Shown: piece by piece, positions 23,159 through 44,746 of the stretch | Numbering within the stretch: the first letter of the stretch is position 1 | Layout: every line of letters starts with the position of its first letter | Assembly: GCA_951812755.1 (NCBI GenBank) | Contig: OX638329.1 | Coordinates: 2,982,522-3,046,521, forward strand | DNA from: an uncultured Latescibacterota bacterium | GTDB lineage: Bacteria; Latescibacterota; UBA2968 | Reading direction: 5' to 3' | Length of the DNA: 64,000 nt | Position numbers and translations under genes: made by a program | The notes under the pieces: generated by a model | Databases searched by the model: none | What the model was told of the DNA's origin: nothing | What the model saw: the letters and a program-made list of their open reading frames with translations, nothing else

Positions 23159-24658
23159 TTATCGGACAAATCCCAACGTGCGGTGGATAATGTGTGGGTC
23201 AATTACGACTGCGGGTTTTGAGTTGGGCGTAATTTGTTTCCCGAAAGCAGAAGCGAATGCGAGGAAGTCCGAGAAACCAACCATACCATCTGCATCGATG
23301 TCGAATCGCGGGTCAAAATCCGGGTCTGAACTGCTCTTGCCAAAGTGGGCGGCGAACAGTAGGAAGTCTGTGAAGCCGATTACGAGATCGCCGTCAAAAT
23401 CAAAGATTCCGAGCGCGACTGTGGGGGTGAATCGAACTTTTTTGAGGTACGCAAATAACAGGTCGAGATCCCGAGACGATTCAGCAATTAACACATCGGT
23501 CCCGCGTTGCTCAATCTTGAAGTCTGTGGATCCAAGGTGTTTAATTGAGAGTATGTCTTCGTAGGCGGTCTTGAACTCTGTCGCATCCCGTTCCGTATCC
23601 CATGTCGTGAACAGGACGAGAGCGGGTGTGTTATCCTCGCGGTGTTTGAAGACGGCATACTGGTCACCATGCCAGCCTGCGGCTGCCGAGTGTGATGGGG
23701 TATTGACATCAAAGGTATTGAAGATGATTCTGAGGCCAAGTTCGCCCAATGTATCCTGATCCAGTAATTCCCAATCTTCTGCGAAGGGTTCATTTGCCAA
23801 ATCTGGAAGTGCGATCTCCTCGAGAGATTCCCCTGCGAAGTATTTGTCTGGATGGAGAATGTGTTCCATCGACATTGGCGGAGTGGTGTACGCGCGATTC
23901 ACTGTTGCCCAGCCTCCGCGTTTTTTCAGGGCAAATACAAAGGCCATTCCGCGAAAGTAGATTCCAATTTGCTGTTCAAATAGGAAATCGGGGATTTCAT
24001 CCGTCTCATTGACGGCCGTATTGATAATATTGTTTATGAATCGCTGTAGTTGGGCATCTGACATCGCCCGTCCAGCGCGATCAAAAGACCAGAGGAATTG
24101 CACCAGCGTTGCATCCCCTTCGGCGAGGGCCTGATGTGCTAATATTTGATCGCTATTTGTTGCGCTGTCGAGCAAGCGGTCGAGTCCAAAGTGCTGATCC
24201 TGTAGCACATGCGTAAGTTCATGAGCTATAATCACTTGAAGCTGTTGTATGGAAATTGATCCTATCGGGAAGTTGACAGAACGGGTTGCGGGATCGTAAT
24301 AGGCTCCGACCTGGTCCAGCAAGGTCCTTTTCATTGCTTCGAAGTCGAAGGGGATACCGCCGTGGTGCAATCCGATGGCGCGGATGAACAGATCGTAGTT
24401 TTGACGAATTATTAGGGGTACGGACCGATCGAACTCGCTGTTTATAAAGGCGGTGATTTCCGCGTTTGTCCGATAGCGTATTGTGAATGGCTGGACAAAG
24501 TTGAGCGACCGGGTTGACGATACCTGTGGCTTAATTGTTTCGCTCAGTGCAGTCAGGTTGGGTAAGATCTGCGATAGGGCGATTGAAGGGATGGCGATGA
24601 TAATTATTGCAATTCGGCAAAGTTTTTTCACTATTTTTGCTCCATTTACTTGAGCCAT
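23159..24658 (-). CDS. secreted HExxH metallopeptidase-like protein with C-terminal dockerin-like repeats
   Basis: Signal peptide; 'HELTHVLQ' motif; tandem 'DFDGDLVIGFTDFLLFAAHFG' and 'DIDADGMVGFSDFLAFASAFG'; 13-bp overlap with the binding-protein gene. Confidence 0.45.
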   Translation of the reverse strand: MAQVNGAKIVKKLCRIAIIIIAIPSIALSQILPNLTALSETIKPQVSSTRSLNFVQPFTIRYRTNAEITAFINSEFDRSVPLIIRQNYDLFIRAIGLHHGGIPFDFEAMKRTLLDQVGAYYDPATRSVNFPIGSISIQQLQVIIAHELTHVLQDQHFGLDRLLDSATNSDQILAHQALAEGDATLVQFLWSFDRAGRAMSDAQLQRFINNIINTAVNETDEIPDFLFEQQIGIYFRGMAFVFALKKRGGWATVNRAYTTPPMSMEHILHPDKYFAGESLEEIALPDLANEPFAEDWELLDQDTLGELGLRIIFNTFDVNTPSHSAAAGWHGDQYAVFKHREDNTPALVLFTTWDTERDATEFKTAYEDILSIKHLGSTDFKIEQRGTDVLIAESSRDLDLLFAYLKKVRFTPTVALGIFDFDGDLVIGFTDFLLFAAHFGKSSSDPDFDPRFDIDADGMVGFSDFLAFASAFGKQITPNSKPAVVIDPHIIHRTLGFVR

Positions 24659-40795: not shown

Positions 40796-40813
40796 TTTTT
40801 ACTCCTTTCAGTT

Positions 40814-41776
40814 TTACTCAGTTCGATAATTGAGCTTGAGCCATTCTGGTGGGCCGTATAGCAGTGGTTTTTCGTTCCAGGTAAATAGCGGTTCTATGTC
40901 TCGCAAAATATCGTCGAGGGCTTCGTGATCGTACGCATCTTGAGTTGGGAAACGGGTTGTCAAGCGGCTGTGCGCGCTCTTGATTACCTGGCGGCGGCGC
41001 AGTATTTCGGGATAATTGGTGCCTTTTAATGTTTCGAGCGCGAATAGGGGAGCCATGATGCCATATACCCGTTTTGCCTCTTTCAAATCTCCAGCTTCCA
41101 GGGCATTCCACAGGCGCACCACGACATCTGTTATGTGACAGCCGGGCATTTGTCCGGCCACGCCGCGCGGATGTTCGAGCAGTAAATAGCGGCCACTGGC
41201 GCCACCAAATACGCCCTTCAATTTTGGCCCGGCCTGTTCGATTAAGCCCGTAGCCATGTGCGTTGGAGGGAAGACCTCTTCCTTGACGTATTCTATGTGT
41301 TCTACTTCATTGATCAAGCGCACCACTGTGTCGATTGATAGCTCGCTACCCCGCGTGTGATTTTGTATAAAAATTGGCATATCCACTTCGCGGTCTATTG
41401 CTTGATAATAGTGTACCATCGCATCTTCGTCTTCAATTGGCTCTATATAAGGGGCCATTGCTATGACGCCATCGGCTTCCAGTGCTTGCGCGTGGCGCGC
41501 GAACATCGTCGCGTGGTTACTACTCGCCCCCTGAACGCCGAGAATGACGGGAATGCGTCCGGCGGTGTGTTCTACGACCATCTGCATCCCGTGCATGCGT
41601 TCCCGGTCGGTCAATACGGGAAAACTACTGGCATTTACGGGCCAGACAATTCCGTGCGCGCCACAGGTGATACAAAAATCCAGCACGCGTTTGAGGTCGC
41701 CCCAATCGACATCTCCATTTTGCTTAAAAGGCGTTGAGGGAATGGTGAATACCCCGCGAAATGTATCAGAACTCAT
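40814..41776 (-). CDS. dihydrodipicolinate synthase / N-acetylneuraminate lyase family protein
   Basis: TIM-barrel DapA-like; start ATG 41776 with AGGAGA RBS; upstream extension rejected (terminator inside). Confidence 0.75.
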   Translation of the reverse strand: MSSDTFRGVFTIPSTPFKQNGDVDWGDLKRVLDFCITCGAHGIVWPVNASSFPVLTDRERMHGMQMVVEHTAGRIPVILGVQGASSNHATMFARHAQALEADGVIAMAPYIEPIEDEDAMVHYYQAIDREVDMPIFIQNHTRGSELSIDTVVRLINEVEHIEYVKEEVFPPTHMATGLIEQAGPKLKGVFGGASGRYLLLEHPRGVAGQMPGCHITDVVVRLWNALEAGDLKEAKRVYGIMAPLFALETLKGTNYPEILRRRQVIKSAHSRLTTRFPTQDAYDHEALDDILRDIEPLFTWNEKPLLYGPPEWLKLNYRTE

Positions 41777-41909: not shown

Positions 41910-41935
41910 GTTTCTATCCGATGTTTCTATCCGAT
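41910..41935. repeat. tandem duplication GTTTCTATCCGAT x2 spanning the AAA+ gene stop
   Basis: Two exact 13-bp copies at 41910-41922 and 41923-41935. Confidence 0.5.
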
Positions 41936-42790
41936 CAACTCGGGCAAATGCGCGGGCAGCAACTCATCGCCGTCACAGTTCACGACGGCCTCATCGATCA
42001 CTCGGCAGAGTTCGGCGGCATTCCTCGGCCAATGATACGCGCCCAACTTTTCCAAAACCCCATTGGAAATCCTCGGAACACTTCGACCATCTCGCTCCGC
42101 ACGTCCTTCAGCGAAATATTGCGCCAGAACGGGGATATCCTCTTTCTGATCTCTCAGCGTATGTGTTTCAACCACGCATACTCGGAGTTGATCGTATAAA
42201 TCTGCGCGAAATCTTCCGGCTTTCACTTCTTTGCTCAAGTCCCGATTTGTAGCCACCATGATGCGAACATCTGCATACACAGGCTGTACCCCGTTCACGC
42301 GGGTATAATAGCCATCGGTCAAATAACTGTGCAAACGATATTGCGTTTCTGGTGCCATGATATTTACCGCATCCAAAAACACCGTACCACCCTGCGCCAG
42401 TTCCAGCAAGCCGCGCTTGGCAATGCCCAAAAACCCGCCATCTTCTACTCCGAAAATCTCTGCTTCATTGTGTTCAACAGATATTTCACAAAAATGTTCT
42501 AAAAACGGATGGTCTGCACGCCGGCTAAATGAATGAATGCTTTTTGCTGTATATGCTTTCCCTGTGCCGGTTTCTCCATAGATAAGCACGGGGGAGGCTG
42601 TACGCGCGACTTCCCGAACCCGCGCTCGCAACTGTTTGGCAGCCTCGCTCTCTCCCACAATCTCCATCTTCGGAATATGCCCACCCACTGTTCTTTGAGG
42701 CGCGAGTGCATCCAGCATGGCCTCGGCTTCTTCGACGTTTACTTTGTCTTCCTGTAACATCGTCAACACCTTGCGTCTATTTGCAGACAT
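41927..42790 (-). CDS. sigma-54-interaction-domain AAA+ ATPase lacking a C-terminal DNA-binding domain
   Basis: Walker A 'GETGTGKAY', Walker B 'GTVFLDAV'; GAFTGA position reads 'GGFLGIAKRG'; ends after the AAA+ lid; AGGAGG RBS. Confidence 0.65.
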   Translation of the reverse strand: MSANRRKVLTMLQEDKVNVEEAEAMLDALAPQRTVGGHIPKMEIVGESEAAKQLRARVREVARTASPVLIYGETGTGKAYTAKSIHSFSRRADHPFLEHFCEISVEHNEAEIFGVEDGGFLGIAKRGLLELAQGGTVFLDAVNIMAPETQYRLHSYLTDGYYTRVNGVQPVYADVRIMVATNRDLSKEVKAGRFRADLYDQLRVCVVETHTLRDQKEDIPVLAQYFAEGRAERDGRSVPRISNGVLEKLGAYHWPRNAAELCRVIDEAVVNCDGDELLPAHLPELIG

Positions 42791-42886
42791 ACGAACCTCC
42801 TGTTAAAGACTTAAAAGCAACCACCGATGAACACAGAGGAAAAGGCGAATAGGCAACGATCAGTTTTCAGTAGTCAGCATACTGTC

Positions 42887-43246
42887 CTATAATCCCCGCA
42901 ACTGTGCAATCGCCTCCTGGGGGCTTAATTCGCCGCAATCTACGGCATCCAAAATTGTTCGCTGATTCAGGCGTTTCTCCACGGCGGGATACCCGAGGGC
43001 CTGCACGACCTCTTCCAGTCGCTTGCGCACAGTGGGATACGAAATCTTCAGTTCTTTTTCCATTTCTTTGATATTGCCTCGGGCGAGCAAAAATGCCTCA
43101 ATAAACTGTTGATGTGCATCCGTTAGCAGTGCCAAACGCGATACGGGCAATTCGCCCTCCACGACAATGTGACAGGATGAACACCGCAGCTTAACAGGCT
43201 CCATCGTGCCATTGCACACTGGACAATGGGGTATTGAACGTCTCAT
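42887..43246 (-). CDS. DUF2089-like zinc-ribbon/HTH protein, tentative
   Basis: 'CPVCNGTM...CSSCH' zinc ribbon then a helical HTH-like region; AGGAGG RBS; start set to internal Met 43246. Confidence 0.45.
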   Translation of the reverse strand: MRRSIPHCPVCNGTMEPVKLRCSSCHIVVEGELPVSRLALLTDAHQQFIEAFLLARGNIKEMEKELKISYPTVRKRLEEVVQALGYPAVEKRLNQRTILDAVDCGELSPQEAIAQLRGL

Positions 43247-43406
43247 AATACCTCCTTTCAATATGTTATTTTAAAAAATATGACTAATAAATTCAAATAT
43301 GTCAATAATAAAAATAACTATATATGCAAAAATGTTATTATAATTTAAAATATCGTATATTTATGTTTCAAAAATTAAGTGCAAATCCCGTCTCGTTGGA
43401 CAATAT

Positions 43407-43477
43407 TGGGCGTAAATTATGGTTGTTTATTCCAAAATTTGGCGTAAATTATGGAATTAAAGTCCATATTTTACGCC
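43407..43477. promoter_or_regulatory. three copies of a 14-bp motif GGCGTAAATTATGG (two direct, one inverted), candidate regulator site
   Basis: Copies at 43409-43422, 43441-43454 and inverted CCATATTTTACGCC at 43464-43477, in the divergent region before the ATPase gene. Confidence 0.4.
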
Positions 43478-43492
43478 GAAAGAGGTGGTCAT

Positions 43493-44746
43493 GTGAAAAA
43501 TAGAACCCTATTTTCTTTTATAAAACAAAAATCCGCCTCCAGATTGGGGCGGCTCATTGCTTTGACAGGTGCGCGACAAACGGGCAAGACCACACTGGTA
43601 CAAACGGGATTTTCCGACTATTCATACATTTCTCTCGATGATCCGATCACTCGTCCGGATTTTACAGCACTTTCGGCTGCACAGTGGTATCAACAGTATC
43701 CAAATGTCATTCTGGACGAAGTGCAAAAAGCACCTGCGATTATAGAGTCTATCAAAGCCGTTTACGATCAGTATCCCGATGCTCGCAGTATCTTACTCGG
43801 TTCCAGCCAAATCTTGTTAATGGAACAGATCCGCGAAAGTTTGGCCGGGCGTATCTCCCTTATTGAACTGTATCCTCTCACATTGCCGGAAATGCTGACA
43901 GATTCCTGGGATGACACCATTGTGGATTCCAGATTTATCCATTTTCTTAAAACAGGTGAACGCGATATTTTGTATTCGGGTATGCCACTCCAGAGCGAAC
44001 GCTATGCACAAGTGGCACATCACCTGGCACATTATATGAATTTTGGTGCTATGCCAGCCGTCGTTGATCCCTTGCTTACCATCCCTGATAAATACGATTG
44101 GTTGCACGACTATATCCAAACCTATCTTCAGTGCGACTTGCGCGATCTCGCCAATTTGCGCGATCTCACTCCGTTTGCTCGCATGCAACGCGCATTGGCG
44201 GGGCTGACTGGCGTATTGCTCAATATGAATGAATTGGCTCAACTTACCGGCGTCACATCCAAGACTGTCAAACGCTTTATCTCATATCTCGAAATAAGCT
44301 ACCAGGTCATATTGTTACAACCGTGGTTTCGCAATCTGAACAAACGTCTGTCCAAAGCGCCAAAAGTTCATTTTCTCGATCCTGGCATCCAGCGTGCGTT
44401 ACTCAATCGACGCGGTCAACCCACAGGCCATGAATTTGAAAGTGCTATTATTGCTGAAATTTACAAACAAATTCAAAATAGCCGGTTGCCCATTGATTGT
44501 TATCATCTGCGCACGGCAGATGGACGCGAAGTCGATTTGCTGCTCGAAACTGAACGGGGCTTTGTGCCTATCGAAATAAAAATGGCGGAACGCATTTCTT
44601 TTACAGACGCCCGCCATTTGCGCAAACTCGACGAAATTTTAGACAAACCCATTCTGCAGGGACTGGTGCTCTCCAATGACCCTCGCATTCACGATCTGGG
44701 CAATGACATTGTGGCACTACCTGTGGGTTGGGCACTTGGCGCGTAA
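43493..44746 (+). CDS. AAA-type ATPase with DUF4143-like C-terminal domain
   Basis: Walker A 'GARQTGKTTL'; start set to GTG 43493 because the motif array covers ATG 43451. Confidence 0.65.
   Translation: MKNRTLFSFIKQKSASRLGRLIALTGARQTGKTTLVQTGFSDYSYISLDDPITRPDFTALSAAQWYQQYPNVILDEVQKAPAIIESIKAVYDQYPDARSILLGSSQILLMEQIRESLAGRISLIELYPLTLPEMLTDSWDDTIVDSRFIHFLKTGERDILYSGMPLQSERYAQVAHHLAHYMNFGAMPAVVDPLLTIPDKYDWLHDYIQTYLQCDLRDLANLRDLTPFARMQRALAGLTGVLLNMNELAQLTGVTSKTVKRFISYLEISYQVILLQPWFRNLNKRLSKAPKVHFLDPGIQRALLNRRGQPTGHEFESAIIAEIYKQIQNSRLPIDCYHLRTADGREVDLLLETERGFVPIEIKMAERISFTDARHLRKLDEILDKPILQGLVLSNDPRIHDLGNDIVALPVGWALGA

Follow-up and report, generated by a model that had tools for sequence, protein, structure and literature searches.

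The window considered here comprises 64 kb of contig OX638329.1 (assembly GCA_951812755.1, positions 2,982,522 to 3,046,521) of an uncultured Latescibacterota bacterium, and coordinates given below are window positions unless a locus is named. On the + strand, the gene at 43493-44746 encodes an ATPase of 417 aa that combines an AAA_14 domain, a winged helix-turn-helix (HTH) and a DUF4143 nuclease domain of the PD-(D/E)XK type, and which corresponds to the PADLOC candidate PDC-S01. A short array of three copies of a 14-bp motif lies at the 5′ end of this gene, and comparison with homologous loci indicates that this array, a putative operator, accompanies the gene rather than its neighbourhood.

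The motif region reads ...caatattgGGCGTAAATTATGGttgtttattccaaaatttGGCGTAAATTATGGaattaaagtCCATATTTTACGCCgaaagaggtggtcatGTG. The first site, O1 (43409-43422, + strand), is an exact copy of GGCGTAAATTATGG, a candidate auxiliary copy that ends directly before a putative -35 element, and the second, O2 (43441-43454, + strand), is also exact and contains a putative -10 hexamer together with a spurious ATG at 43451. The third site, O3 (43464-43477, - strand), reads GGCGTAAAATATGG and is the right arm of a convergent pair. A first-pass annotation had reported two direct and one inverted copy of the motif: the direct copies are indeed exact and start 32 bp apart, whereas the inverted one carries a mismatch to GGCGTAAATTATGG that had gone unmentioned. 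The outer span of O2 and O3 is 37 bp. A repeat search recovered the same organization as two direct repeat units of 32 nt (CAAWATTKGGCGTAAATTATGG...; 43401-43432 and 43433-43464, + strand), which are 75% identical with a spacing of 32, and as an inverted repeat of 21 nt, 86% complementary, formed by copies 2 and 3. Allowing up to two mismatches, GGCGTAAATTATGG has three matches in the 64 kb, all of them in the array, while shuffled sequences gave a mean of 0.46 and none out of 100 reached three. Two further occurrences of the core GGCGTAAWWT (at 23226 and 40669) are each single, partnerless and inside coding sequence, and no second paired copy of the motif is present anywhere in the 64 kb. A dispersed repeat, similar to repetitive extragenic palindromes (REP) or miniature inverted-repeat transposable elements (MITE), was discarded as an explanation, since this is the sole array in the 64 kb and elsewhere the motif is tied to the 5′ ends of ATPase genes. 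A unique motif, together with homolog alignments in favour of ATG 43451, had been named beforehand as refuting the first-pass annotation. The array is the only one in the window, which is no refutation because the site is gene-specific and not regulon-wide, and the motif recurs upstream of homologous ATPase genes in many phyla.

The translation start of the gene is GTG 43493, which is in frame with ATG 43451 and lies 42 bases, or 14 codons, downstream of this start of the longest open reading frame (ORF). Nearly all of the 120 best homologs have about 417 aa, equal to the 431 aa of the long ORF minus 14, and around 110 of the 120 begin with M(K/I/H)NR, aligned to V15-K-N-R of the ATG-43451 frame; the annotated extension appears only in the two closest relatives. 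Moreover, in L006, from the complete Latescibacterota chromosome OZ242320.1, whose protein is 96% identical, the supposed extension contains an in-frame TAG (VE*KSK...). A Shine-Dalgarno sequence, AGAGGTGG (43481-43488, + strand), is located 5-12 nt upstream of the GTG and is kept in L001, L003 and L006, and none was found ahead of ATG 43451. The 14 additional codons are the putative operator read as protein (GGC GTA AAT TAT GG giving G-V-N-Y-G), an artefact that also affects the over-long homolog P0032, and an exact-protein lookup of the 431-aa ORF returned no match. The first-pass annotation had noticed that the array covers ATG 43451, as O2 does by overlapping 43451-43453, and had preferred GTG 43493 as the start; the homolog alignment that it proposed, which places the start at V15, the TAG of L006 and the Shine-Dalgarno sequence present only at the GTG all agree with this choice, and the start codon is thereby corrected for the annotations of this lineage.

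The same array is present in L001, L002 and L003 (97% and 95% protein identity) and in L006, four loci where the ATPase gene is directly divergent from a gene of the DHDPS family. L001 and L003 have a copy located exactly 32 bp upstream of O2, and L004, L007, L008 and L009 a degenerate one (AACGTAAAAT...). In L004 and L005, with a 75%-identical protein, the context is wholly different and the gene adjoins an SbcCD-like pair; their sites read TTTTGGCGTAAATTTATG...ATTAAATTTACGCCAAAA, span 37 nt, lie 14 nt before the GTG and have a degenerate copy exactly 32 bp upstream. A profile built from 37 sequences and run on GTDB species representatives gave 80 further loci, distributed among Latescibacterota, Thiothrix/Leucothrix and other Gammaproteobacteria, SAR324, Verrucomicrobiota, Bacteroidota, Acidobacteriota, Spirochaetota and Myxococcota. 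Within positions -200 to -1 of 84 ATPase loci, the sequence GCGTAWWWT has 131 matches on either strand, at least one in 68 and at least two in 46 of these loci, and the background of 0.0145 per 200 nt in about 630 kb of flanking sequence corresponds to a roughly 100-fold upstream enrichment; 3′ of the ATPase genes, the motif stays at background level. The clustering of flanking genes in search of a co-travelling regulator gave no common family, the largest group (10 of 82 loci) being paralogous ATPases. That the array is a gene-linked cis element can be regarded as virtually certain. The idea of an operator-type site, put forward by the first-pass annotation, gains weight from this conservation upstream of homologous ATPase genes in many phyla, from the rigid spacing and from the overlap with predicted promoter elements. 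The resulting signature is an 11-nt element, GGCGTAAWATT, that can be followed from Latescibacterota to Proteobacteria and Bacteroidota.

The geometry of the sites, with orientation defined on GGCGTAAWATT, is strict. Of 37 pairs of neighbours in the same orientation, 36 have a spacing of 32 bp and one of 31 bp, and since 32 bp are three helical turns, direct copies would share the same side of the helix. Among 30 convergent pairs, 29 have a span of 36-38 bp, which is exactly 37 bp in 20 of them. Up to four direct copies are found per array, and the consensus of the 32-nt unit over the whole family is ATaTtGGCGTAAaATTtGgAaT. Three architectures can be distinguished: a convergent pair located 4-15 nt before the start codon, sometimes with a direct copy 32 bp upstream (type A); two to four direct copies, mostly in Bacteroidota (type B); and direct copies that point the other way, as seen in spirochaetes and some Bacteroidales (type C). 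The array of the window is a type A of the ">><" form, and its O2 corresponds to the left arm type found in about 40 loci.

Other subfamilies of the protein have other repeats. In a clade of 37-39% identity (L081-L085), the sequence TCGTAAAT...ATTATACGA shows a 29-nt span and abuts TTGACA/TTGCTT, whereas a paralog in L067 is preceded by AATTTTTCAGG...CCTGAAAAATT twice at 33 bp, and homologs of this paralog by AACCTTAAAAWTT, with copies 33 bp apart in L216. More DUF4143 homologs show TTAGCGCAAAT twice at 32 bp (L218) or ACTAGCGCAATTCGCGCGAATTGC twice at 32 bp (L220), and the paralog in L079 has two repeat copies at 33 bp. As far as these sequences indicate, protein subfamilies differ in their cis element and share its geometry. 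Two more observations concern paralogs of the family: in L015 (6396-6481), four tandem units of 22 nt (TGTAAAACTCGTATTAAGCTCT), unlike the arrays phased by 32-33 bp, precede a paralogous DUF4143 ATPase gene, and the 3.1-kb locus L219, from a metagenome scaffold, holds three DUF4143/AAA_14 ATPase genes within 3 kb, an example of local paralog clustering.

The sites are also in a fixed register with promoter-like hexamers across loci. In the window, the putative -35 TTGTTT (43423-43428, + strand) is 16 nt upstream of the putative -10 TAAATT (43445-43450, + strand), which falls inside O2, so that transcription is predicted to start at about 43456-43459, with O3 placed at approximately +7 to +20 and O1 ending at the -35. 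Most type A loci carry a TTG-type -35 located 15-17 nt upstream of the TAAWWT of the left arm, such as TTGACA-16-TAAAAT (L120), TTGACT-17-TAATAT (L147, L157 and L161) or TTGACG-17-TAATAT (L163). Upstream of the gene, the -35 is matched more closely than on the mirrored side of the pair (mean 3.78 versus 3.02 out of 6; p=0.0012 in a paired Wilcoxon test over 41 loci of incomplete independence). The -7 box of Bacteroidetes promoters follows the consensus TAnnTTTG, and the left arm of type A arrays in Bacteroidota, GCGTAtaTTTG, contains this box exactly. For type B arrays of the same phylum, 12 of 15 loci have an exact TAnnTTTG that starts 32-34 nt after the GGCG of the last repeat, which leaves the TTTG of the repeat itself about 20 nt upstream of the box, at the expected -33 position. 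A generic sigma-70 scan of the window called a mirrored match on the - strand, TTCACA-18-TAAAAT (43497-43468), directed leftward away from the ATPase gene; it is attributed to the mirrored half-site and the GTGAA of the start-codon region, and it could also drive divergent or antisense transcription through O2 and O1.

With regard to the encoded protein, both Pfam matches are above the gathering score (AAA_14, 5e-26 and 91.6 bits; DUF4143, 8e-34 and 117.2 bits), the PADLOC model PDC-S01 matches at 1e-82, and the family is also labelled COG1373. An AlphaFold2 model of high confidence (predicted local distance difference test, pLDDT, 91.3; predicted template modelling score, pTM, 0.92) presents, in this order, an AAA+ core, a helical region, an HTH with a beta-hairpin (residues 226-294 approximately) and an alpha/beta domain with the catalytic residues. 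The latter, D343/E346/D348...E361-x-K363, are conserved as a D..E.D...E.K motif. A fold search with this model gave the archaeal AAA+ proteins 2qen/2fna, STAND and Cdc6/Orc1 as nearest neighbours, whereas a sequence search of the PDB with the family profile gave no match, and only the fold search was informative. The T-x-(K/R)-R-(F/Y) motif of the recognition helix, which comprises about residues 256-268 of the window's protein, is kept even in relatives of 27% identity that retain GGCGTAA, and precomputed Pfam HTH_11 matches exist on some homologs. DUF4143 has been classed in the PD-(D/E)XK superfamily (PMC3424549), and PDC-S01 was described as a single-gene candidate obtained by "guilt-by-embedding", an ATPase fused to a PD-(D/E)XK domain that ranks fourth in frequency among the candidate defences of prokaryotes (PMC12988326). 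When a PDC-S01 representative was assayed in E. coli B against T4, T5 and T7, it fell outside the four protective candidates (bioRxiv 10.1101/2024.09.26.614923). Neither a conserved upstream element nor DNA binding of a sequence-specific kind is mentioned in any of these three works, and our search of the literature on DUF4143, COG1373 and PDC-S01 found no upstream DNA element, although most subscription journals fell outside it and a prior description is possible.

An independent view of the element comes from a scan of metagenome contigs for the pattern GGCGTAAWWT-N16-18-AWWTTACGCC, which gave at least 80 loci. Among the 80 matches listed, homologs of the DUF4143 ATPase (26-62% identity) are encoded in 30, each time with the start of the gene directly beside the site pair. 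Some of the matches that lack the ATPase are in coding sequence or in unrelated repeat families, and Pfam scans of the genes beside the 50 ATPase-less matches found heterogeneous neighbours with no common family. One metagenome locus offers an explanation for orphan arrays. In L156 (MKWU01036318.1, about 1347-1451 in locus coordinates), the sequence corresponding to window positions 43401-43506 is joined to that of 44745 onward, and both flanks are 96-98% identical to the window. A deletion between AAT(A)GAAC microhomologies has removed the ATPase ORF (window positions ~43507-44744) and left the three copies of the motif and the DUF2089 module described below. L156 is thus a gene-loss remnant, and orphan arrays can therefore be the remains of deletions, so that the promoter signature is recognisable even after the gene has been lost. 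Homing, or insertion into an empty site, was rejected for L156, since its junction is an internal microhomology deletion in the ORF.

The neighbourhood of the array differs among close relatives. Positions 41919-43358 are a 1.44-kb insertion/deletion (indel) with respect to L001, L003 and L006, which includes a sigma-54-type AAA gene, a DUF2089 gene and an AT-rich stretch. The first encodes a sigma-54-interaction-type AAA protein (41927-42790, - strand) that has a SHOCT-like DUF2089-C region at its N-terminus, lacks a recognisable HTH and finds its nearest PADLOC models in the RtcR/PspF-like CARF_AAA_HTH kind, and the second a DUF2089 Zn-ribbon/HTH protein (42887-43261, - strand) that is divergent from the ATPase gene and upstream of it. 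The stretch of 15-22% GC at 43262-43358, a promoter region, belongs to the DUF2089 indel and lies outside the own upstream region of the ATPase gene (43359-43492, + strand), which is shared with relatives without the DUF2089 module; homology detected by blastn resumes at 43359 in L001 and L003, and at 43380 in L006. A second indel occurs in this otherwise collinear region: compared with window positions 40808-40839, L001 (1191-4810) and L003 have an extra 3.6 kb between the sulfatase and DHDPS genes, coding for an M48 peptidase and an 806-aa CarboxypepD_reg/DUF898 protein, which the window and L006 lack.

Taken as a whole, O1, O2 and O3 would form a cis-regulatory module of the ATPase gene that moves with it between genomes. 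In this module, O2 would overlap the -10 of a TTGTTT-16-TAAATT promoter, O3 would be its inverted partner, about 10-20 nt inside a short 5′ leader, and O1, one 32-bp period upstream on the same face of the DNA, would abut the -35, so that a sequence-specific DNA-binding protein occupying the three sites would control the initiation of transcription. The combination of a conserved sequence, a rigid spacing and a variable orientation is characteristic of DNA sites to which proteins bind, and the motif is likely to act at the DNA level on transcription initiation. Somewhat less firmly, the three copies are probably an operator array overlapping the promoter of the ATPase's own gene and bound by the winged helix of the ATPase. 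The ATPase itself seems the best candidate binder, with a fair probability, because no component other than the gene product co-occurs with the sites; repeats specific for each subfamily are predicted by self-recognition and not by an unlinked host factor. DNA binding by this protein is plausible given the HTH and beta-hairpin of the confident model, the conserved recognition helix and the AAA+/winged-helix fold neighbours. The binder would act as a dimer or higher oligomer through its winged HTH, and the most likely effect would be negative autoregulation. If the ATPase binds the sites, the family would be one of sequence-specific DNA-binding proteins that set their own dose, which matters for heterologous defence assays. 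For PDC-S01, an abundant candidate family of roughly 40,000 genes, the array offers a concrete and testable handle.

Several data weigh against this interpretation. The -35 of the window is weak, as TTGTTT matches only 3 of 6 positions, and the generic sigma-70 scan did not call the proposed promoter on the + strand. In the convergent pair, the two centres are separated by 26 bp (about 2.5 turns), an unusual distance if the binder were a simple dimer. No ATPase adjoins 50 of the 80 pattern matches listed, and around 10 of these 50 look genuine, at least one of them, L156, being the deletion remnant described above. Moreover, the loci are phylogenetically related, and counts and p-values overstate their independence; the co-variation of repeats and subfamilies comes from about 10 loci inspected by eye.

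The same operator array could be bound by an unlinked host transcription factor instead of the ATPase, an idea suggested by the DUF2089 Zn-ribbon/HTH gene located divergently upstream in the window and by the pattern matches without an adjacent ATPase. We consider it unlikely, as the motif and its spacing are kept across at least eight phyla with no common neighbour gene, and as ATPase subfamilies share the phasing but not the sequence of their repeats; the DUF2089 HTH protein in particular was rejected as the binder, since L001, L003 and L006 keep the array without the DUF2089 pair. In another scenario, the main role of the array would be that of a platform on which the AAA+-nuclease assembles or is loaded (a 'self' or nucleation site comparable to DnaA boxes, or to the archaeal origin recognition boxes, ORB, beside orc1/cdc6), any effect on transcription being secondary. 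Up to four copies phased by 32 bp, conserved nuclease catalytic residues and fold neighbours that include Cdc6/Orc1, STAND and transposition-target AAA+ proteins oligomerising on DNA would fit such a platform; nevertheless, the sites coincide precisely with putative -10/-7 or -33 elements in every architecture, as transcription control expects, and there is one array per gene, always 5′ and never downstream, which makes a platform function improbable. A bolder version of self-binding, to which we give little credence, would join both aspects: DUF4143/PDC-S01 proteins would be AAA+ nucleases that recognise DNA sequence-specifically and form oligomers on the 32-bp-phased, subfamily-specific arrays of their own promoters. 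The bound oligomer would be the resting state, to be released or activated by some trigger, for example phage infection or foreign DNA, in a coupling of de-repression to nuclease activation. If so, the array would be part of the sensing mechanism, beyond the control of expression.

The repeats might also act as RNA, through a hairpin of the 5′ untranslated region formed by copy 2 or copy 1 with copy 3 and controlling mRNA stability or translation. The segment 43400-43500 folds at -28.3 kcal/mol (z = -3.97), and the hairpin ends 4 nt before the Shine-Dalgarno sequence; such a z-score, however, is expected from any inverted repeat. No Rfam family was found at the gathering score, and a permissive E-value retrieved only models of eukaryotic small nuclear RNAs and microRNAs, far below it. 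An RNAalifold analysis of 26 convergent pairs retained no base pairs beyond the seven invariant ones of GGCGTAA/TTACGCC and gave a covariation term of 0.07, and variable half-site positions are uncompensated (pairable in 0.58-0.69 of the loci versus 0.46-0.53 in cross-locus controls). Many lineages, furthermore, have only direct repeats, upstream of a recognisable -7 box, and the putative -10 lies inside copy 2, so that the left arm would not be transcribed. All this makes an RNA element highly unlikely. An intrinsic terminator was also rejected: a scan of 43100-43700 gave 0 terminator-like sites, and the stem is AT-rich and followed by GAAAGAGG, with no GC-rich stem and T run. As for origin iterons, which the first-pass annotation had offered as an alternative, or the ends or target site of a mobile element carrying the ATPase, they would account for direct repeats of fixed period beside an AT-rich stretch, for a gene that is clearly horizontally mobile and for the array that L156 keeps without the ORF. 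Both are extremely improbable: the contexts are chromosomal and varied, with no common Rep, partition, transposase or integrase gene, the motif is restricted to the 5′ side of the gene, the junction of L156 is a simple deletion inside the ORF and no empty site, the AT-rich stretch is part of the neighbouring DUF2089 indel, and no switch in GC skew is seen. The iteron proposal finds no support.

An operator on the promoter of its probable binder's gene is of an ordinary kind. As in the DnaA boxes of the dnaA promoter or the palindromes of LexA and lambda CI type, conserved palindromic or direct sites would coincide with the putative -10/-35 of the gene of the probable binder, and an auxiliary upstream site on the same helical face suggests cooperative binding. 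On the other hand, the presumed binder is not a small dedicated repressor but a 417-aa AAA+/winged-helix/PD-(D/E)XK protein, and a 32-bp period with up to four copies and a palindrome span of 37 bp are much larger than in classical operators. Archaeal Orc1/Cdc6 proteins also have ORB repeats beside their own gene, whereas here there is one array per gene at arbitrary positions of bacterial chromosomes, the boxes coincide with promoter-like elements and the protein carries a nuclease domain. Plasmid iterons are alike in their direct sites of fixed period near the gene of the presumed binder, and iteron-binding Rep proteins also autoregulate through inverted copies; they differ in their period, typically of 17-22 bp instead of 32 bp, and in the replicon context and Rep homology, both absent from these chromosomal contexts. 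The gene downstream of the array is like the PDC-S01 (AAA_14 + DUF4143) of PADLOC, whose models it matches. What would be unusual, then, is presumably an AAA+/winged-helix/nuclease binder from an abundant candidate defence family, a 32-bp phasing of up to four copies, and a cross-phylum element that is replaced in sister subfamilies.

Finally, scans of viral contigs for both site arrangements gave nine loci, none of them with an ATPase homolog, which fall into two or three unrelated sequence families and are compatible with chance or with other systems. In L211-L214, IMG/VR contigs of about 50 kb, AAAAATCGGCGTAAAATT occurs twice directly at exactly 32 bp (for instance, L212:6741-6782), in the intergenic region between a gp3-like small-terminase gene and the gene of a sigma-70 region-2 protein; the retrieved stretch of these contigs holds no DUF4143 homolog, and the repeat may be due to chance or belong to another system with a similar site. 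A separate family of conserved palindromes, GGCGTAAATTCTGTCAGCGGACTACCAAAATTACGCC, with flanking repeats of the CCGGATAGTT... type and no adjacent ATPase, was found in the viral loci L207, L208 and L210, near a gene for an SNF2-type helicase in L208, and in the metagenome loci L107, L118, L134 and L135. Six more metagenome loci (L092, L100, L117, L128, L138 and L145) contain dense short repeats of the GTAAATTACGC(C/G) type, with several copies within about 80 nt, which were retrieved only through their fit to the search pattern.

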